DNA from: Candidatus Micrarchaeota archaeon | GTDB lineage: Archaea; Micrarchaeota; Micrarchaeia; Micrarchaeales; CABMGC01 | Assembly (NCBI GenBank): GCA_021796295.1 | Contig: JAJYIA010000003.1 | Location: forward strand, 1-35,421 | Length of the DNA stretch: 35,421 nt | Direction: 5' to 3' | Shown here: positions 2,331-33,051 of the stretch, one piece after another | Layout: each line of letters starts with the position of its first letter | Numbering within the stretch: position 1 is the stretch's first letter | Notes under the pieces: model-generated | Seen by the model: only the letters and a program-made list of their open reading frames with translations | The model's database searches: none | What the model was told of the DNA's origin: nothing | Made by a program: the position numbers and the translations under genes

Positions 2331-2936
2331 ATGGATAACAGAACAGAAAGGCTGGTGAGAGCGATCCAGAATTCACCAGAAGGCATCGCCGCGCTTGAAA
2401 CACTGGAGGGCCTACGCCTTTGCGATAAATTTACCCTGAGGACAACGCTGAGCAGGCTAAGCAAGTCTGGCAGGATCATTCGCCTGAAGCGTGGGGTATA
2501 CTCGGAGAATCCGATTAGAGACGCGTTCACAGCTGCGCAGTACACATACGGCGGATACCTTGGCTTTTCCAGCGCTTTATATTTGCACAAACTGATCACC
2601 GAACTCCCATTCACTATAACCGTAGTAACACCGCACAAGTCCGCATCAAAAACCATCGGAGCATATGAACTAAGGGCCGTCGCCATGAAAGAAAAGGCCA
2701 TCGGATTCGAAAATGTCGGGACCCTGACGGTTTCAACCAGAGCAAAGACTATATTCGACTGCATTTATCTTGAAAAGTATTCAATCGCGAAGGATAAACT
2801 TATCGAGGCTTATAGGGATGCGCCGCTAAATGCCCGAGAACTGAAGGAGTTCGATTCATATGTGAAACGTTTCATTCCAAGTAGAATGCGCAATAAGTTT
2901 GTCGAAGTAAAGAAAGAGATGGAAGAAGAGGGTTGA
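2331..2936 (+). CDS. AbiEi-family type IV TA antitoxin / wHTH transcriptional regulator
   Basis: TLSRLSKSGRIIRLKRGVY wHTH, GYLGFSSALYLHKLITE, KTIFDC; coupled to AbiEii gene. Confidence 0.88.
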   Translation: MDNRTERLVRAIQNSPEGIAALETLEGLRLCDKFTLRTTLSRLSKSGRIIRLKRGVYSENPIRDAFTAAQYTYGGYLGFSSALYLHKLITELPFTITVVTPHKSASKTIGAYELRAVAMKEKAIGFENVGTLTVSTRAKTIFDCIYLEKYSIAKDKLIEAYRDAPLNARELKEFDSYVKRFIPSRMRNKFVEVKKEMEEEG

Positions 2937-3733
2937 ATTCTATGGAACTGGACTTAGAAATATGCAGGGCGATCGCTATCCGCTACGGACTCCCCCTTCA
3001 ATTCGTATTCAAAGAGTTTCATCTTATGGATGTGATGTCACAAATAGCTGCACTTACGATTTCAGAACCAAACAATTTGGTATTCAAGGGCGGCACGGCT
3101 CTGAATAAAGTATACCTCCAAAAAACGCAGAGGTTCTCAGAGGATGCGGACTTTGATTTGGTGACTGAAAATGCTAAAAAAGAGCTACGTTTATTTAGCG
3201 AGAAACTTGCGGGCGGACTCAAAGATTACAGAATCAGAGAGTTCAGAATGGTGCGTTCTACAGTACAGTTTTATTGCGTATATGAAACACCCATGGGGGG
3301 CACTGATCACGTCAGAATCGACATCGCGCCCAAAAAGCTCCTCACAGCAAACCCATTGGAAAATCGCCAGATAGTTTCTGAATTCGCCCACGCATCCATA
3401 AGTGGCATTAGGATATATTCGATAGAAGATCTTACCGCTCGCAAGCTGAATGCGCTTGCAGCACGTGCGGAGGGCAAGGACCTGTATGACGTCTATATGG
3501 CATTGCCAATGTGCTCCAAGCATGTGCTAAAGGCCGCGATAGGGTTAATGCTGGAATCGGAAGGCATTGACGAGGCGGTAGATGTGTTCATACAGAAAGC
3601 AGCCATCCGCCTCAAAAAGAGCGATCCAAACAAAATGGGCAATCTTACAAATCCCTTCATTCCAGCAGCAAACAGACCAAAGAGTTGGGAGGAGCTGAAA
3701 AATGATCTATCAGCAAAGCTTGAAGATCTATAG
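2933..3733 (+). CDS. AbiEii/AbiGii-family nucleotidyltransferase toxin
   Basis: LVFKGGTAL, RFSEDADF, KLNALAARAEGKDLYD motifs; start may be ATG 2942. Confidence 0.9.
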   Translation: MNSMELDLEICRAIAIRYGLPLQFVFKEFHLMDVMSQIAALTISEPNNLVFKGGTALNKVYLQKTQRFSEDADFDLVTENAKKELRLFSEKLAGGLKDYRIREFRMVRSTVQFYCVYETPMGGTDHVRIDIAPKKLLTANPLENRQIVSEFAHASISGIRIYSIEDLTARKLNALAARAEGKDLYDVYMALPMCSKHVLKAAIGLMLESEGIDEAVDVFIQKAAIRLKKSDPNKMGNLTNPFIPAANRPKSWEELKNDLSAKLEDL

Positions 3734-5727: not shown

Positions 5728-8118
5728 ATGGAAGCTGAGGACTTTGGGAAGCTAGGCATCAGGGAAGCACTCAGCAAGCTTCATGCGGGCACAGGCGGGC
5801 TTTCAGACAGGGAGGCACGTGAGCGCCTTGCAAGATTCGGATACAATGAAGTAATAAGGAAAAGGGAGAACAGGGCCCTTCTTCTGCTGAAAAAATTCTA
5901 CGGGCCTGTGCAGCTGCTCATAATTCTCGTTGCGGCGTTGTCCTATGTGCAGGGACATATGGCGGATTTTTATATAGTCGTGGCGCTCCTTTTTGTGAAT
6001 GTATTTGTAAGCTTTGCTGAGGAATATAGGGCAGATAGGGCGATAGAGGCGCTAAGGAAGAGGCTTAGCGGCAGGCCCAGGGTGCTCAGGTCAGGCAGCT
6101 GGAAAAGCCTTGAGACGAGAGAGCTTGTGCCGGGCGACATAATACGTTTAAGGGCAGGCGACATTGTGCCTGCGGACTGCAAGGCCCTGCGCTGCGAGGT
6201 CCTTGAGGCTGACGAATCGGCCATAACAGGGGAGTCGCTGCCGATAGTTAAGGAGCAGAACAGCATACTCTACGAGGGCTCAAGCATAAAAAGGGGCGAG
6301 GCCACATGTGTTGTCTTCGGCACAGGCCCTGATACAACCTACGGAAGGATAGAGAAGCTCGTTTCAGAGGCAAAGCCTAAGTCGCACCTCCAGGAAATTA
6401 TACTCCGCATAGTCAGGTATCTGGTCGTTGCAGATGCAGTGGTTATAGTGCTTATGCTTGCATACGGCATGCTTTACCTGCACGAAACTGCGCTGGCAAT
6501 GCTCCCTCTGCTGCTGGTAGTCTTCATAGCAAGCGTGCCTGTGGCTCTTGCACCAGCCTTCACAGTGTCTATGGCGCTAGGCATAGAAAGGCTCTTGAGG
6601 AAATCGATACTCGTGAGCAGGATGGACAGCATGGAGGATACTGCCACCATGGATGTGCTTTGCGTAGATAAGACAGGAACGCTCACGCAGAACAGGATAA
6701 ACGTGGAAGAGGCGAAGCCTCTGGCATGCAGCGAAGCCGAACTGCTTAGGTACGCGGCCGAAGCCTCGAGGAAGGAAGATAATGACCCTATAGACAACGC
6801 TGTGCTTGACTATGCAGCAGCGAAGAAAGTAAGGCGTTGCAGGCAGCTAGAGTTTACGCCTTTTGACCCTTCGACAAAGAGGACGGAGGCCATTATAGAG
6901 GATGGACTGTCAAGATACAGGGTCGTGAAGGGCTCTGTCAAGGTCGTATCGGCAATGTGCAGCGCTGAGAAGGCAATTAGGAAAGAGCTTGAGAAGACAA
7001 CCTCGATCTTCGCGTCCAAGGGCCTCAGGAGCATTGTTGTGGCAAAAGGCAGCGTATCAGGCAGGCTGAAGCTCATGGGCATCATAGCACTATATGATGC
7101 GCCGAGAAAAGATGCAGCTGCGCTTATAGGTGAATTGAAGGGGATGGGCGTTGCGATTAAGATGCTTACTGGGGACAACGAGCAGACTGCCGAGAACATA
7201 GCAGGCAAGTTAGGCATTGGAAATCATATCATTGACGTGAAAAAAGCAAGCGAAAGAGAGATATACAGGAAAATAGACAGTTCTGACGGATTTGCCGACA
7301 TATACCCTGAAGACAAATATTTAATAGTCAAGGCTCTGCAGAAGGAAGGCCATACTACTGGCATGACAGGCGACGGAATAAACGATGCGCCTGCGCTTAA
7401 GCAGGCAGAGGTGGGCATTGCCGTAGAGAGCGCTACAGACATAGCGAAAAGCTCAGCCTCGCTTGTACTGACAAAAAACGGCATAGAGGTAATAATCGAG
7501 GCGGTAAAAGAGAGCAGGAGAATCTTTGAGAGAATGACTATATATACAATGGCAAAGGTATCGAAGGCCATACAGATCATAGCCTTTGTGGGCATACTCT
7601 TCGTGCTGCTTAAAGGGGCCTTCCCGATCACGCCCTTCCTGCTTATACTGCTCATATTTACGAATGACATAGTGAATATTTCAATATCTACAGACACTGT
7701 GAGCTATTCGAAAAAACCCGACATATGGAATGTGAAGGGTATAGTCTACACCTCTGCGGTGATAGGCATGCTTATGCTTATACAGACGCTGCTTCTGGTA
7801 GGCATAGTGAAGTGGAGCCTTGGCGCCGGCCTTGCCGAGATGCAGACGGCCGCCTTCCTCTTCCTTAATGTCTCTGACAAGTTCACCGTACTTAATATAC
7901 GCGAGAAAAGGCCGTTCTGGAAATCAAGACCAAGCAACGCACTCATAATATCTGCGGTTGCAGGCATACTTGTAGGGGTCATCTTATCATATTACGGCAT
8001 ATTCATAGCAAGGATAGGTCTTCTTTCGATAGCTGCTGTCTTCGGCATAGCTGTAGCGTCGCTCTTCGTGAACGACGCAGCAAAGCTGCTGCTCTTCAAA
8101 CACTTTGAAATTGGGTAA
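5728..8118 (+). CDS. P-type H+-exporting ATPase (P3A)
   Basis: TGES, DKTGTLT, TGDN, GDGINDAPAL; TM4 VPVALAPAFTVSMALG and TM6 IFTND typical of P3A proton pumps. Confidence 0.88.
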   Translation: MEAEDFGKLGIREALSKLHAGTGGLSDREARERLARFGYNEVIRKRENRALLLLKKFYGPVQLLIILVAALSYVQGHMADFYIVVALLFVNVFVSFAEEYRADRAIEALRKRLSGRPRVLRSGSWKSLETRELVPGDIIRLRAGDIVPADCKALRCEVLEADESAITGESLPIVKEQNSILYEGSSIKRGEATCVVFGTGPDTTYGRIEKLVSEAKPKSHLQEIILRIVRYLVVADAVVIVLMLAYGMLYLHETALAMLPLLLVVFIASVPVALAPAFTVSMALGIERLLRKSILVSRMDSMEDTATMDVLCVDKTGTLTQNRINVEEAKPLACSEAELLRYAAEASRKEDNDPIDNAVLDYAAAKKVRRCRQLEFTPFDPSTKRTEAIIEDGLSRYRVVKGSVKVVSAMCSAEKAIRKELEKTTSIFASKGLRSIVVAKGSVSGRLKLMGIIALYDAPRKDAAALIGELKGMGVAIKMLTGDNEQTAENIAGKLGIGNHIIDVKKASEREIYRKIDSSDGFADIYPEDKYLIVKALQKEGHTTGMTGDGINDAPALKQAEVGIAVESATDIAKSSASLVLTKNGIEVIIEAVKESRRIFERMTIYTMAKVSKAIQIIAFVGILFVLLKGAFPITPFLLILLIFTNDIVNISISTDTVSYSKKPDIWNVKGIVYTSAVIGMLMLIQTLLLVGIVKWSLGAGLAEMQTAAFLFLNVSDKFTVLNIREKRPFWKSRPSNALIISAVAGILVGVILSYYGIFIARIGLLSIAAVFGIAVASLFVNDAAKLLLFKHFEIG

Positions 8119-11639: not shown

Positions 11640-12317
11640 CCTTTGCACGAGCGACTCGGAAGCCACGCCCTTTGGGCGTGGAGGGAGTAGCTAGATCACA
11701 TCGCGCTGACCAACGTTCGTTGCCTGTGATCCTGTGCCTTGACGTATCTCCTTGTTGTCTCTATATCAACATCCCCGACGCTCCTGTAGAATTTCCCTGG
11801 ACTCTAGGAATCACCGTGTGGGTATCTCAGCCTGAACTTTGGCTCGAACCGGAAAAGTTCGTAGGAACTTCTGCCTTTGAGCTGATGAAACACACCACTT
11901 ACGGAAAGAGTCGGCTTTAGTCCTATCACCAGATGGACGTGGTCGTCCTTTATCTCCATCTCGATGATTTTGCAACCAGGTTTCCTTGACTCTTCCTCCA
12001 CGTACCGGCAAGGAAATCCTTAAACCTTTCCTGCCTTGACATATTGTACAGGTATTTCGGGCACCACTCAAAGTGGAAAACAATCTGCCCAACACCGTGC
12101 GCCGAAGGCGCAGCGCCGATTTTCACAAAGCTGTCGCTATTCATGGTATCACGTCTGTGGCAGTTCCAGGCCGTGTTAAAACCGCGGCTCCACTGCCACT
12201 ACGAAAAGATGTTGCAAGAAAACGTTTACGTTAGATGCGGCGACTGCGCTGCAGGGTGCAATTCGTCCGGACGCCCTGAAGGGCGTGGCTTACTTGCACC
12301 TCCAGACCACCCAATCA
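11640..12317 (-). mobile_element. IS200/IS605-family element, tnpA only, ends approximate
   Basis: tnpA pseudogene flanked by palindromes CCACGCCC-TTT-GGGCGTGG (11663-11681) and ACGCCC-TGAA-GGGCGT (12271-12286); no tnpB. Confidence 0.8.
11696..12144 (-). pseudogene. tnpA: Y1 (HUH) transposase TnpA, one frameshift and one nonsense codon
   Basis: FHFEWCPKY (frame 1), DHVH and LKGRSS (frame 2), then after TAG SPGKFYRSVGDVDIETTRRYVKAQ with catalytic Tyr; GTGAT SD upstream of ATG. Confidence 0.9.
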
Positions 12318-12320: not shown

Positions 12321-13091
12321 AGATTCCTTCACGATTTGCCTTGCGATAGTGAGAAGCCTTTCGGGGCTTATCTTGAAAACTCTCTCGTCAGGGGTTGCCA
12401 CTGCAGAGGCAAGAGCAGCAGCAGAGTTCCTTTCAATCCCTAAAGAAAGCCTTGAGTCCTCTATGGCATTTTTCAGCCTTTTCTTCTTGTGCTGCATAAG
12501 GCATGAAATGGCATTTTCCTCCGCGCGGCTTATATTTAGTGTCTTGGGCCTTATGTATACGACTTCGGAATCCACCCTGGGCACAGGAAAGAAGTAGGAC
12601 CTGGGCACAGGCATTATCTCGGTAACGGAAAGCCTGAGAGCTGAGATGACGCTTAGCTTTGAGTACTTCCGCGTTCCGGGCCCTGCAAGCATGTGCTCGA
12701 CAAACTCTTTCTGCATGCATAGCACGGCCTCCTTGCCCTTTTCAATGATCCAGCCTACGGTCTTGCTCGATAGATTGTAAGGAATATTGGCTATGAGAAT
12801 GTCTATGCCATCTAAGTCGAGCTCTGTGTCGCTGAGCCTGAAGAAATCGGCATTGAGAAGCCTTAGATTCCCGCTTTTCAGGGTAAGCCAGAGGTAATCA
12901 TACAGCCTCTTGTCCTTCTCTACAGCAACAACGCTCTTCGCATTTCTGCATAGCTCTCTGGTAAGAATGCCGCGGCCTGGTCCTATTTCGAGGACGCGTT
13001 TGCCATGGGCGTGCTCTGCCTCAGCCCGGGCCACATGCGCATTGGCAAGGAAGACCTGGCCCAGCTTTTTTGACATGCGCAATGAAGCCAC
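12315..13091 (-). CDS. rsmA: 16S rRNA adenine dimethyltransferase RsmA/KsgA
   Basis: KKLGQVFL, VLEIGPGRG, ANIPYNLSS, YSKLSV, FFPVPRVDS. Confidence 0.93.
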   Translation of the reverse strand: MASLRMSKKLGQVFLANAHVARAEAEHAHGKRVLEIGPGRGILTRELCRNAKSVVAVEKDKRLYDYLWLTLKSGNLRLLNADFFRLSDTELDLDGIDILIANIPYNLSSKTVGWIIEKGKEAVLCMQKEFVEHMLAGPGTRKYSKLSVISALRLSVTEIMPVPRSYFFPVPRVDSEVVYIRPKTLNISRAEENAISCLMQHKKKRLKNAIEDSRLSLGIERNSAAALASAVATPDERVFKISPERLLTIARQIVKESN

Positions 13092-13095
13092 CCCG

Positions 13096-13389
13096 TTATG
13101 CCTTGCTTGCTTTGACCCTCTTAAGCCTTTTCTCCACCTCTGCGCTTATACTGTTGCCGAGCAGGAGTATGAATATGCCGACGGCGAGGGTTATCGCACC
13201 AGTATAGAGGTCGCCGTTCTTCGGCGCGCAGCACTGGATGGCTGCTGTGCTGCCCTCAGGTATGTTAGGGCAGTTGCAGATCCTAGCGTTATTCAGCACA
13301 TACCATACCGAAATGGAGACGATTCCGGCTATAATCCAGCCCAAGCCTGCGGCCAGCACCTCTTTTCTCATCGATTCATCCAGGAGCAT
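13096..13389 (-). CDS. Small two-TM membrane protein with Cys-rich loop
   Basis: Two hydrophobic helices flanking CNCP...CC loop; 4 bp from rsmA start. Confidence 0.7.
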   Translation of the reverse strand: MLLDESMRKEVLAAGLGWIIAGIVSISVWYVLNNARICNCPNIPEGSTAAIQCCAPKNGDLYTGAITLAVGIFILLLGNSISAEVEKRLKRVKASKA

Positions 13390-13422
13390 CGGCTTTCTAT
13401 TAGCTCAAGAACCTATTCGGTG

Positions 13423-13437
13423 CGAAAAGTATAAAAA
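13423..13437 (+). promoter_or_regulatory. BRE-TATA promoter of the Cys-rich micro-ORF
   Basis: CGAAAAG-TATAAAAA ending 28 nt before ATG 13466. Confidence 0.6.
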
Positions 13438-13465
13438 GTTGCATATGCCAATATAATACGGTTAT

Positions 13466-13570
13466 ATGTGCCAAACATGCGGATGCGCTCCGTGCATGAA
13501 GTGCGGTGCAGAGATAAAAAATAGGGTTTGCGCAGGCTGCAGCAAGCCTTCCAAGTCGTGCACATGCTAG
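13466..13570 (+). CDS. Metallothionein-like 34-aa Cys-rich peptide MCQTCGCAPCMKCGAEIKNRVCAGCSKPSKSCTC
   Basis: ATG..TAG; 9 Cys (all TGC) in CxxCxCxxCxxC / CxxC / CxC; no aromatic residues; upstream TATA; not in the supplied ORF track. Confidence 0.75.
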   Translation: MCQTCGCAPCMKCGAEIKNRVCAGCSKPSKSCTC

Positions 13571-13819
13571 GAGCAGGGACAATAGGCTGCACCAGCAGCA
13601 TGCAAAAGTTAGCCGAGATAGCTTATGCTGTAGTGTGGTAAACTGTTTTTTACATAATGTTAATGTGGGATTCTGCATTAATGCCTAATGCGCTGGTCTA
13701 GGCATATGCTTTTATACCTATCTGCCCTCTTATGCCATATGGAATGTGTGCAGATGTGATAATACACCTTTCCGATTCACATTAATGGCACGGCTTAAGC
13801 AGTATTTGCTTATGCTTTC

Positions 13820-15070
13820 ATGGATCTATCAACCTCATACCGGGGCGATAACTTGATATCCAGGGAGCTTAAGTGGTATTATGCCTCATTCAATCTCTTT
13901 GTGTTCTCCCAGGGGCTTATCGGAGCATTCCTGAACCTCTTCTTCTTTGCCAATGACTCATACGTGAGCGTGCTTTATTTCCAGCTCTTTGTAATTATAG
14001 GGGTAACTCTCGCGTTTATAGGCTCGGGTTACCTTCTCAGAAGTATAAAACCAAAGGACCTCTACGCAGCAGGTGAGATCGCCAGAGTTGTGATACTCAT
14101 ATCGCTTGTAGCCGCAGCCGGCTTCATATCCAACCTTTTCTTCTTCGGCATACTGTACGGCATATCAGGGGGCCTCTTCTGGTCGGGTAACAATATTATA
14201 ACGTATGACGTAACAGAGAAGATGGACAGGAACGCCTTTATCTCGTTTAACAACATAGCCAGCGGCGTTGCTACATTTGCGGCACCGTTCATGGCTGGAG
14301 TGCTCATACAGTTCTCATTGCTGAGGGGACCGCTGAGATTCCTCTGGGACTTCGCCGCAGCAGGCGCAATACTGGGGCTCTCCGCAGTAACAATACGCAG
14401 GATAGGCAGAGCAGACGGCGAGGTGCTGCCGTCATTCTCGTTTAGAGACACAATTATAAAGGGTAGGAGCATGTACCAGAAATTCAAGGCCTATTTCTTC
14501 CTGAGCCAGATCTTCGCAATACCTTTCCTGATCATACTGCCGATATATGTCTTTCAGATTACAGGCAGCTACCTCATTGCAGGCATCTTCACGAGCTATA
14601 TGGTATTGGCCTCTGTGGCATCAAACTTCATATTCAGGAACGGGGCCAGAAGATGGGATCTCTTCATGAGAATTGCAGTGCTGGCAATCATGCTCTCTTC
14701 GATTACACTCCTCATGCCCAAAATAATACAGCCTCCGTGGAATGCCTTCCTATTTACAGGATTATACACCTTCTTCTCTACTCCGCTTAACAACAAGGCC
14801 GCGTTAAACTTCTACAAGCTGATTGACTCGAACCGCGACATAAACCGCGTCTTCTTCTGGATAAACAGAGAGTATTACATCAATATAGCAAGGGCTCTTG
14901 TTGTCCTGCTTATGTTTGCGCTTCTTTTTGTGTTCAGGGTAAGCAGCCTGGGCCTTTTGCTGATGCTGCCTTTCCTCACGCCTTACGCGCTCATATTCCT
15001 GAAGGTTTCGCATGACGGAATTCCAATGAAGGGAATTAGTCTTATCAGAGGCATAGTGCAGAAATACTGA
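13820..15070 (+). CDS. MFS transporter
   Basis: 416 aa, about 12 hydrophobic segments in two halves; GISGGLFW, APFMAGVLI. Confidence 0.8.
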   Translation: MDLSTSYRGDNLISRELKWYYASFNLFVFSQGLIGAFLNLFFFANDSYVSVLYFQLFVIIGVTLAFIGSGYLLRSIKPKDLYAAGEIARVVILISLVAAAGFISNLFFFGILYGISGGLFWSGNNIITYDVTEKMDRNAFISFNNIASGVATFAAPFMAGVLIQFSLLRGPLRFLWDFAAAGAILGLSAVTIRRIGRADGEVLPSFSFRDTIIKGRSMYQKFKAYFFLSQIFAIPFLIILPIYVFQITGSYLIAGIFTSYMVLASVASNFIFRNGARRWDLFMRIAVLAIMLSSITLLMPKIIQPPWNAFLFTGLYTFFSTPLNNKAALNFYKLIDSNRDINRVFFWINREYYINIARALVVLLMFALLFVFRVSSLGLLLMLPFLTPYALIFLKVSHDGIPMKGISLIRGIVQKY

Positions 15071-30157: not shown

Positions 30158-30255
30158 GGGCTCGTAGCTCAGCCTGGTCAGAGCGGCGGTCTTATAATAA
30201 TTTATAGGGATTAGAAGAGAGCCGTAGGTCGTGAGTTCAAATCTCACCGGGCCCA
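30158..30255 (+). tRNA. tRNA-Ile (anticodon TAT) with 23-nt intron at 37/38 (30197-30219)
   Basis: Acceptor GGGCTCG/CGGGCCC-A, D stem GCTC/GAGC, loop CT-TAT-A, T arm GTGAG-TTCAAAT-CTCAC; intron forms BHB-like motif. Confidence 0.85.
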
Positions 30256-31959: not shown

Positions 31960-33051
31960 TTATTGGGGCAGCGCAGTCACATATGACTCGTTTACACTTC
32001 TGCCTATGCCTGTTTCGCGCATGCTGAGCTGCAGGCGCATGCTCGTGTTTGGCAGCATTGCGCCCGTACCGTGACCTGTTACATTCATTGTCATGTTGTA
32101 TGACAGCATGAGCGGCAGGTAATATTCCTCTGAAAGGCATTCTTCATGGGTTATGTGGAATAGAATATTGGTAGAGTCATTCGCATGAATTGCAGTTCTG
32201 TAGGCTGTGACGTTTGTAGCGTCGCTTCCTTTGGTAAGGTAACACTGCTGGCCATTTAGGGAGTTTATGCCCAGGAACACGGTCTTTATGCTGTAGCCTG
32301 CAGAAACAGAGGAGATTCTGCCGCTCAGGTTCTCCTGCTCAAGCAGCGAGGTAATGTTTGCTGCAAGGCCCTTTTTAAGCCCGGCCTCGAGAGATGAAAT
32401 GCTTGCATTGTAACTGCTGCTTGGCAGGCACTCCGGGCTGCCGTTTAACGAGGAATAGAGCCCTTTGCCGAGATTCAGGCAGAGGTAATCAATGCCATTG
32501 CTGAGCAGTATGCCAACCATGTCTATATTGCCTCTCGAGGGCACATTGCTTGCATTCAGCAATATTCTTAGATTATTGCCGTATTTGAATAAGGTGACAT
32601 TGAATGGCACTGCGAAGGAGACTCTGCCGCTGCCATTGCCGTATATCGATATTGAGGCATTGCCGGAATAGCTTATGTTTAGTCTTTGCATGCCGTTGAG
32701 CTTGTTAAGTATGACCAGGGTAAGGTTTGTTGCGTTTATGGGGTTCTGCACAAGGACTCTGTACAGTGGATCTGTGGAATTGGCAGGCGTTTCATACGCA
32801 GAGGAGGCATGCCTGTAATACAGAACAGCTGCAAGTACAACCACAACAAGAACAAGAGCCAGCTGAAATGCAATCCTTGATTTGTTGCTTGCATTCGGAT
32901 TTTGATCCGTTTTAGACATAGGTGGTGTTGCAGGTGCTTCTGGCTGCGGTTGCGGCTGAGGCTGTTGGATCTCGCCTTCCTGAGGCTGCACAGGCTGCTG
33001 CCTCTCTTCACCTTCTTCCGCAGAAAGTAATGAAAAGAGTATGTATGCCAT
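31960..33051 (-). CDS. Membrane-anchored surface glycoprotein, unknown function
   Basis: Q/P-rich N-terminal region, single TM helix, many N-x-S/T sequons, paired Cys. Confidence 0.75.
   Translation of the reverse strand: MAYILFSLLSAEEGEERQQPVQPQEGEIQQPQPQPQPEAPATPPMSKTDQNPNASNKSRIAFQLALVLVVVVLAAVLYYRHASSAYETPANSTDPLYRVLVQNPINATNLTLVILNKLNGMQRLNISYSGNASISIYGNGSGRVSFAVPFNVTLFKYGNNLRILLNASNVPSRGNIDMVGILLSNGIDYLCLNLGKGLYSSLNGSPECLPSSSYNASISSLEAGLKKGLAANITSLLEQENLSGRISSVSAGYSIKTVFLGINSLNGQQCYLTKGSDATNVTAYRTAIHANDSTNILFHITHEECLSEEYYLPLMLSYNMTMNVTGHGTGAMLPNTSMRLQLSMRETGIGRSVNESYVTALPQ

Follow-up and report, generated by a model that had tools for sequence, protein, structure and literature searches.

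Does an apparently empty gap in an archaeal contig, in which nine cysteine codons crowd into a short open reading frame (ORF), hold a genuine gene, and if so, what might so small a protein do? The question arises from the window analysed here, a stretch of 35,421 nucleotides (contig JAJYIA010000003.1) from a Candidatus Micrarchaeota archaeon, in which a sequence-only reading had pointed to an unlisted, metallothionein-like archaeal microprotein with its own promoter. Re-reading of the DNA bears out the ORF itself, from ATG13466 to TAG13570. Its translation, MCQTCGCAPCMKCGAEIKNRVCAGCSKPSKSCTC, comprises 34 amino acids, of which 26.5% are cysteines (residues 2, 5, 7, 10, 13, 22, 25, 32 and 34, in the layout CxxCxCxxCxxC-x8-CxxC-x6-CxC), and contains no histidine, tryptophan, tyrosine or phenylalanine. 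Because an in-frame TAA lies 4 codons upstream, position 13466 is the sole possible start. The gene was indeed missed by gene callers, the exact sequence of its product was not found in a collection of 15 billion proteins, and no RNA family or tRNA was detected at the locus in Rfam and tRNA scans. As detailed below, the microprotein belongs to a conserved, mainly bacterial family that has no name and no assignment to a known family, and its cysteines very probably bind metal.

Cysteine content alone is no proof that this ORF exceeds chance. The 793-kb host genome contains 46 ATG-initiated ORFs of 25-60 amino acids with at least seven cysteines, and base-shuffled sequence gives far fewer. The window has a second nine-cysteine ORF, of 36 amino acids (32394-32504, plus strand), which runs antisense within a 363-amino acid gene (31960-33051, minus strand); it is most likely a chance antisense shadow and serves as a negative control for the counting of cysteines. 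What lifts the microprotein ORF above chance is comparative evidence, namely a low ratio of non-synonymous to synonymous divergence from the closest genome available and the presence of 75 intact homologues among 77 loci elsewhere.

The sole genome of the same genus that was compared (G001) encodes an orthologue of 37 amino acids that is 91% identical to the protein from the host genome of the window (G000, 84% complete). The two genomes share the local gene order, with ksgA followed by a small membrane protein gene on the minus strand and then the microprotein gene. Of the 34 shared codons, 14 differ synonymously and 3 non-synonymously, the latter by conservative changes of the Ala/Ser type; by the Nei-Gojobori method, non-synonymous divergence (dN) is 0.05 and synonymous divergence (dS) is 1.9, with dN/dS of 0.027. 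The identity of the microprotein exceeds that of KsgA (69%) and of the small membrane protein (61%), and the intergenic flanks either contain indels or cannot be aligned. Homologues that retain the cysteines and vary synonymously exist both here and among the loci described next. We consider it almost certain that the gene is genuine, and the comparison of sequences indicates strong purifying selection over a long time.

To define the family, we scanned one genome per species, 185,579 species in all, for the exact patterns MCQTCGC[AS] and PCMKCGAE, a procedure that is biased towards the N-terminus of the window protein. The 77 loci obtained comprise 76 bacterial ones and a single archaeal one, that of G001; intact peptides of 34-48 amino acids are encoded by 75 of them, one being cut by a contig end and one decayed. 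A profile search of 1.84 billion cluster representatives, free of this bias, yielded 20 proteins at E<=1e-3. Nineteen of these are small proteins that vary at positions 3, 4 and 8 and keep the cysteine pattern except in three defective entries; the twentieth (P0008, 609 amino acids with 11 matched stretches) was taken for an unrelated cysteine repeat, and its sequence was left out. Overall, family members are 34-69 amino acids long, and one subfamily (P0013 and P0014) has a CxC in place of the C10-x2-C13 knuckle.

Conservation within the family extends well beyond the cysteines. Among 78 aligned sequences, M1, C2, C5, G6, C7, C10, C13, C22, C25, C32 and C34 are invariant, and Q3, P9, G14, I17, V21 and G24 are conserved in at least 90%. 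Archaeal and bacterial members, the latter from several phyla, share 59-79% identity. In the 34-residue core of 75 distinct sequences, Cys accounts for 26.5% of residues, Gly for 12.4% and Lys for 12.3%; His, Trp and Tyr are absent, and Phe rounds to 0.0%. C-terminal tails are mostly basic (net charge +1 to +5), and a few are strongly acidic (down to -25). Between members, a median of 52% of the codons for identical residues differ, and it is therefore selection, not recent spread, that accounts for the conservation. Of 69 distinct regions upstream of bacterial members, 57 have a Shine-Dalgarno-like motif 4-22 nucleotides before the ATG, compared with 10 of 69 in a control window placed 100 nucleotides farther upstream.

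Database searches left the family without an assignment. With hmmscan against Pfam-A, no family matched the microprotein at E<=1, prokaryotic metallothionein (PF02069) included, and the only NCBIfam matches at E<=10 were two NuoE rows at E of about 0.8-0.9, which are noise. The sources that name family members call them "hypothetical protein" only, and ESM Atlas gave nothing but unnamed clusters (score about 0.8). No published description of the family was found, supplementary files aside, in searches that included the metallothionein, archaeal and cysteine-rich protein literature; the N-terminal string MCQTCGC was found in the text of no paper, and no paper was found on "archaeal metallothionein". 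Weak hits in related genomes, at E of 0.003-0.9, were rejected, being zinc-finger pieces of proteins of about 970-1190 amino acids or nothing recognisable.

The description of the microprotein as specifically archaeal does not survive this survey, in which 76 of the 77 loci are bacterial and the gene proves rare in the archaeal phylum. By the taxon labels in the record titles, 39 loci are of the Planctomycetota type (Phycisphaerae, Sedimentisphaerales, Pirellulales, Brocadiia/Kuenenia and similar) and 22 of the Deltaproteobacteria/Desulfobacterota type (2 Deferrimicrobium and 1 Oligoflexia among them); the remainder come from Nitrospirae/Nitrospirota (5), Omnitrophota (3), Patescibacteria (2), Dehalococcoidales (1) and Micrarchaeota (1, in G001), with 4 labelled only as "bacterium". 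Genome sampling around three labelled centres gave the family in 9 of 301 genomes of the phylum of a Phycisphaerales-labelled genome and in 8 of 251 for a Desulfuromonadales-labelled one, the centre being counted in both cases, and in the centre only (1 of 251) for a Patescibacteria-labelled one. The family is a rare, patchy accessory trait, present in about 3% of the sampled genomes of two bacterial phyla. Three bacterial genomes carry two copies each (L017/L039, L044/L079 and L065/L078, the last pair in G403, where both copies were confirmed). In the planctomycete-type pairs L044/L079 and L065/L078, a copy with an acidic core lies next to pheT and a basic copy lies elsewhere; in the pair L017/L039, both copies are basic. 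No relatives were found on viral contigs, and there was no match on plasmids.

Of 401 genomes of the archaeal phylum, six have a match at E<=1e-3: three with intact copies (G000, G001 and G357), one with a pseudogene and two with weak partial matches (G082 and G232). G357 belongs to another family of the same order and has the gene in a different context. Its congener G263 has, at the homologous site (L091, G263:C9, 34068-34175, minus strand), a pseudogene in which 3 cysteines are replaced and a TGA interrupts the frame, showing ongoing loss within one archaeal genus. The copies from the two archaeal families are identical to each other at 26-27 of 34 positions, as they are to the best bacterial members; 34 residues are too few to tell how many transfers took place or which way they went. 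In G082, the match is a 61-amino acid protein that shares only the C10-C34 part (E 1e-4), lacks the N-terminal triad and keeps the C-terminal CxC. Beside it (L092, 1396-2897), we observed an 84-amino acid ORF that resembles, by eye, the C-terminus of a heavy-metal P-type ATPase and has no Pfam match, a protein with a Cupredoxin_1 domain and a Cys/Gly-rich tail, and a weakly thioredoxin-like ORF; this gene group may be a metal-handling cluster.

The own promoter proposed for the gene finds support in comparison. A purine-rich heptamer, CGAAAAG, that resembles a B recognition element (BRE) abuts the TATA-like octamer TATAAAAA, which begins 36 nucleotides before the ATG. The all-A/T octamer of the G001 orthologue is TAATAAAA, which begins at -31, and that of the G357 orthologue is TTTTAAAA, which begins at -28, so that such an octamer is found in 3 of 3 intact archaeal copies, with a purine-rich stretch before each. 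Upstream of 728 long ORFs of the host genome, all-A/T octamers are most frequent at -32 to -25, where the 4-nucleotide bins count 125 and 109 against a background of about 50, and the octamers of the microprotein genes fall in the region of this peak. It is plausible, judging by these motifs, that the gene has its own promoter and a leaderless or near-leaderless mRNA, as would be typical of the host genome. No RNA run was among the sequencing runs listed for this DNA. The only run found to cover positions 13000-14000 is a DNA run (X1), which is uninformative on expression and may be the source sample; a second DNA run (X2) and one RNA run from the same study, available as contigs only, had no match in this interval.

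An AlphaFold2 model built from the 78-sequence alignment predicts a small ordered fold, with a mean predicted local distance difference test score (pLDDT) of 83.2 and a predicted template modelling score (pTM) of 0.49. It consists of a helical turn (residues 2-5), a hairpin (17-22, with strands 17-18 and 21-22) and a further turn (29-31). Two CxxC(G) knuckles, C10-M-K-C13-G14 and C22-A-G-C25, flank the predicted hairpin, and the family consensus is CxxCG in both. Profile alignments to the PDB, none of them significant (E 0.12-1.9), align C10, C13, C22 and C25 with the Cys4 zinc ribbons found in L37e, RecR, Fpg and the HDAC6 zinc finger; the best of these matches (HDAC6 and L37e, E 0.12-0.4) should be read in the light of a peptide that is too short for such methods. 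The top rows of a Foldseek search, again none significant (best E 2.6), are mostly zinc modules, namely RING domains, RanBP2/ZRANB2-type zinc fingers, rubrerythrin and Spt4. Residues 10-25 would form something like a Cys4 zinc ribbon, and the C-terminal CxC might complete or bridge a metal site. A predicted homodimer with zinc scored 0.02, which is evidence neither for nor against.

The N-terminus offers a more specific lead. In pattern as well as in position, M-C2-x-x-C5-G6-C7 is the CxxCGC of HypB from Escherichia coli, where the K-12 hypB translation begins MCTTCGCG. By the known rule for a small second residue, the initiator methionine would be removed. A Met-Cys start from which the family never departs would be required by a metal site that has the free N-terminal amine as a ligand, but not by a generic thiolate cluster. 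Translation of G000 in all six frames gives MCxxCGC a single time, in the microprotein gene, and CxxCGC six times. HypB N-termini from planctomycetes begin with MCxxCGC in 5 of the 40 sampled (L110, L112, L118, L119 and L121), the other 35 lacking a motif-bearing extension; four of the five run on into His-rich stretches with 12-28 His. In HypB, this motif is reported to bind Ni(II), its affinity being picomolar, in a site that is diamagnetic and square-planar and consists of the N-terminal amine together with the Cys2, Cys5 and Cys7 thiolates, and a peptide model of it also to bind Zn(II) (PMC12284835). A sub-picomolar Kd has been given for the HypB nickel site (PMC7055735), and GTPase-type HypB subgroups have been classified by the presence of CxxCGC (PMC13202556).

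Taken together, these observations lead us to favour, with a confidence that is evenly balanced, a structured and conserved metal-thiolate microprotein, a defined mini-domain that holds or buffers metal. The cytoplasmic 34-residue chain would be made of three cysteine modules. In the first, Met-Cys2-x-x-Cys5-Gly6-Cys7 would provide a HypB-like site for one square-planar Ni(II), bound through the amine and three thiolates; in the second, Cys10 and Cys13, the hairpin, and Cys22 and Cys25 would make up a Cys4 zinc-ribbon-like pair of knuckles; and in the third, Cys32-x-Cys34 would fold back to complete or bridge a site. Such a protein would have a very tight grip on soft metal ions, two or three of them and most likely nickel and/or zinc. 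Small as it is, it would hold or buffer metal with high affinity and possibly donate it, and would be metallothionein-like in job and composition, yet a defined mini-domain and not a plastic cluster. We infer binding through the cysteines with high confidence; between a holder or buffer and a scaffold for a partner, the odds are even. A bolder version, in which the family would be a new class of free-standing nickel microproteins that join a HypB-type Ni(II) site to a zinc ribbon, a portable holder or donor exchanged between anaerobic bacteria and DPANN archaea and kept with hardly any change, appears rather unlikely.

Several results weigh against this picture of a metal-holding mini-domain. 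The match to the HypB motif spans only 7 residues, and the grouping of the cysteines into putative sites is drawn from spacing and predicted secondary structure only. Hydrogenase and hyp genes would be expected alongside a HypB-type site, given the role of HypB in maturing [NiFe]-hydrogenase. In the 84%-complete G000, there is no [NiFe]-hydrogenase, the only PF00374 match being the 49-kDa subunit of complex I, NuoD; no convincing HypB, the one candidate being a marginal, partial PF02492 match in a 479-amino acid ORF without a Pfam family; and no LarA, NicO or CbiM was found, so that no nickel client or importer is visible in this genome. Of 5 bacterial hosts checked, only 3 have HypB; in the planctomycete sample of 301 genomes, 4 of 9 carriers of the microprotein have it, compared with 63 of 292 others (Fisher p = 0.12). 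The decayed copy in the congener of G357 shows that the gene is dispensable. No metal regulator, metal transporter or maturase recurs among the diverse neighbours of the gene, and the conservation of surface residues across domains could instead reflect a macromolecular partner. We also considered a supply in trans of the motif that HypB lacks: HypB is devoid of CxxCGC in 6 of 6 carriers, and also in 32 of 37 non-carriers, which makes the comparison uninformative. As for metals in the host more generally, the sole E1-E2 P-type ATPase found in G000 (window 5728-8118, plus strand) is of the Cation_ATPase_N/C type, a proton or alkaline-earth pump, and this genome, which comes from a mine-drainage sample, yielded no P1B-type (heavy-metal) ATPase.

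One rival is the explanation from which the inquiry started, a classical metallothionein in which all nine cysteines would form a single M3Cys9-type cluster that sequesters Cu, Zn or Cd and so detoxifies them in metal-rich water. Composition is on its side: 26% cysteine with CxC and CxxC and without aromatic residues or histidine recurs across 75 distinct cores, all nine cysteines and not just eight are invariant, the knuckle-to-CxC swap of P0013 and P0014 would be tolerable in a cluster, and the run covering the window is labelled mine drainage metagenome. Mammalian beta-domains are reported to form Zn3Cys9 clusters (PMC10243857). However, no metallothionein family matches at the Pfam and NCBIfam thresholds given above, most homologues come from genomes labelled groundwater, peat or sediment, not from metal-rich sites, no metal regulator or efflux gene recurs nearby, and AlphaFold2 gives a confident, ordered mini-fold. 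The conservation of Q3, G6, P9, G14, I17, V21 and G24 points to a defined fold with specific sites more readily than to a plastic M3Cys9 cluster, and metallothioneins are not known for non-cysteine conservation of this kind across domains, here at 59-79% identity between archaea and bacteria. We regard this explanation as distinctly improbable, and of the metallothionein label in the sequence-only reading we retain the composition, not the family and probably not the architecture; a DPANN acidophile from metal-rich water accords with the sample label of this genome and does not explain the family.

A structural adaptor, with two zincs in a RING-like or zinc-ribbon mini-fold that binds a protein or nucleic acid partner as a regulator, in the manner of many small zinc-finger proteins of archaea, would account for the very strong conservation of non-ligand positions across domains, the mostly basic tails, the two CxxCG knuckles of the consensus, and the RING domains, zinc fingers and ribbons among the top Foldseek rows; Haloferax volcanii is reported to encode dozens of proteins of <70 amino acids with two C(P)XCG motifs, predicted to be zinc fingers (PMC11241148). 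In such an adaptor the ninth invariant cysteine and the strictly N-terminal CxxCGC would be superfluous, no conserved partner gene adjoins the microprotein gene, acidic tails down to -25 misfit a single nucleic acid target, and a gene so rare and patchy implies that any partner is not a universal one requiring it; we think this explanation unlikely. A redox or iron protein of anaerobes, carrying a rubredoxin-like iron at the central CxxCG...CxxC or an Fe-S cluster on several of the cysteines, as an electron shuttle or oxidant sensor, draws on the mostly anaerobic host groups named in the record titles, on rubrerythrin among the Foldseek rows and on a minority of neighbours that encode FMN (flavin mononucleotide) reductase/flavodoxin-like proteins, superoxide dismutase or AhpC/Redoxin. 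These neighbours are few, by simple counts, among very diverse contexts, there is no rubredoxin or ferredoxin family match and no aromatic core residue, and the cysteine spacing is unlike the ferredoxin motif, all of which make this a very unlikely solution. Finally, a small Cys/Ser/Thr-rich peptide with an MFS transporter gene 250 bp downstream on the same strand might suggest the precursor of a ribosomally synthesised and post-translationally modified peptide, another secreted or modified peptide, or a disulfide-rich toxin. The protein has no leader, its conserved core starting at residue 2, no signal peptide or hydrophobic stretch and an odd number of cysteines; no maturase, radical-SAM or other modifying enzyme recurs at 75 loci, and the MFS neighbour is absent at G357 and at the bacterial loci. 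We give this last idea almost no credence, and the metal-thiolate holder remains the reading that we favour.

Gene neighbourhoods are diverse when neighbours are taken, in a crude call, to be the closest ORFs that do not overlap the gene and have at least 70 amino acids (73 upstream and 75 downstream). Downstream, 10 loci encode PheT, and upstream, 9 encode a PDZ protease, all of them being of the Sedimentisphaerales/Phycisphaerae type; DUF378 occurs in 8 loci, dienelactone hydrolase in 3-4, and many other neighbours are singletons. A faint redox or stress flavour comes from 7 FMN reductase/flavodoxin-like neighbours (5/73 upstream, 2/75 downstream), superoxide dismutase (3/75) and AhpC/Redoxin (2/75). 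All-against-all clustering of the neighbours of 76 loci, in search of a conserved partner gene, produced only an antisense shadow ORF as its top cluster.

In the window, the microprotein gene is flanked by ksgA, a membrane protein gene and the MFS transporter gene; the features of the locus itself are collected in Table 1. The membrane protein (97 amino acids, 13096-13389, minus strand) is transcribed divergently from the microprotein gene and has two predicted membrane helices, a loop with CxCP...CC and no Pfam match. It was considered as a partner and rejected, being present in 14 of 41 relatives, mostly without the microprotein and in varied contexts. Downstream of the microprotein gene, a candidate terminator shows no alignable conservation, since the G000 and G001 flanks do not align there.

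Table 1. Features of the microprotein locus, in window coordinates
Feature	Position	Strand	Basis
BRE-like purine-rich heptamer CGAAAAG, abutting the TATA-like box on its 5' side	13423..13429	+	read in the sequence; putative function
TATA-like A/T octamer, candidate archaeal promoter	13430..13437	+	octamers of the G001 and G357 orthologues, genome-wide octamer peak
Nine-Cys microprotein coding sequence, including the TAG stop (13568-13570)	13466..13570	+	ORF reading, G001 orthologue, 77 related loci
Codons 2-7, C-Q-T-C-G-C, CxxCGC directly after the initiator Met	13469..13486	+	M1, C2, C5, G6 and C7 invariant in 78/78
Codons 10-25, C-x2-C-G ... C-x2-C, predicted Cys4 zinc-ribbon-like knuckle pair	13493..13540	+	AlphaFold2 hairpin, weak profile alignments
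Codons 32-34, C-T-C, C-terminal CxC pair	13559..13567	+	invariant in 78/78
T6 run, candidate archaeal oligo-T terminator	13646..13651	+	putative; 76 nt past the stop

Other parts of the window yielded a few observations of their own. Two overlapping short ORFs at 11804-12144 (minus strand), with the strings ...HVHLVIGLKP... and ...HFEWCPKY..., look by eye like a frameshift-split Y1 transposase of the IS200/IS605 type; the stretch around them, 11.6-12.3 kb, lacks a long ORF, and G001 has no such insert between its metallo-beta-lactamase-fold gene and ksgA. At 2331-3733 (plus strand) lies a pair encoding an AbiEi-like antitoxin and an AbiEii nucleotidyltransferase toxin, a type IV toxin-antitoxin or abortive-infection module. 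A 98-nucleotide tRNA at 30158-30255 (plus strand), detected by Rfam with 58 bits and missed by ARAGORN, probably bears an intron.

The significance of the microprotein lies in the first place in its conservation. Identity of 59-79% between an archaeon and members of at least six bacterial phyla, when synonymous sites have reached saturation, amounts to unusually strong constraint on a protein without a name, and the gene is a clear case of a conserved gene missed by standard gene callers. The protein is small enough for chemical synthesis, which would allow a direct test of its metal chemistry. If nickel or zinc binding proved true, the family would represent a new, widespread type of small metal holder, carried also by genome-reduced DPANN archaea of acid mine drainage; if the nickel reading did, no smaller protein dedicated to nickel would be known, and none of this kind would have been known before from an archaeon without a hydrogenase.

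Set against known systems, what is new here is the occurrence in archaea, with a pseudogenised relative, the estimates of frequency and the lead from the HypB motif. The beta-domain of vertebrate metallothioneins resembles the microprotein in having nine cysteines in about 30 residues, CxC and CxxC motifs and no aromatic residues or histidine, and is reported to form Zn3Cys9 (PMC10243857). The spacing of its cysteines differs, and the microprotein, in contrast, has conserved non-cysteine residues, a predicted ordered hairpin and no family match. Among the bacterial metallothioneins, SmtA has nine cysteines and two histidines in about 55 residues and an adjacent gene for an SmtB/ArsR-type repressor. 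SmtA and BmtA (PF02069) are, like the microprotein, small, cysteine-rich and cytosolic, and metal binding is predicted for the microprotein. They differ from it in that the microprotein has 34 residues, neither histidine nor aromatic residues and no Pfam match, and in that no SmtB/ArsR-type regulator is found among the 25 commonest Pfam families of neighbours (73-75 loci) or at the window. SmtA is reported to embed a zinc-finger fold in its metal cluster (PMC10612145).

The C(P)XCG micro-proteins of archaea, such as HVO_2753 and HVO_0758 of Haloferax volcanii, come close in architecture, with fewer than 70 residues, two CxxC(G) knuckles and a short hairpin, and they too are described as often unannotated and equipped with their own promoters (PMC11241148, PMC10716476). 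Unlike them, with four cysteines per finger and little else, the microprotein packs nine invariant cysteines into 34 residues and belongs to a mainly bacterial family; searches by sequence and fold, for which the peptide is too short, gave no significant match to them or to zinc ribbons. From HypB, the microprotein is set apart by the lack of a G3E GTPase domain, since it ends at residue 34, and of a His-rich stretch, by six further invariant cysteines in a free-standing chain, by an archaeal host in which neither a hydrogenase nor a convincing HypB was found, and by a co-occurrence with HypB in bacteria that is not significant. What the two have in common is M-C2-x-x-C5-G6-C7 at the extreme N-terminus, a motif that, as a heptad on its own in HypB, is reported to bind Ni(II) through the amine and three thiolates (PMC12284835).

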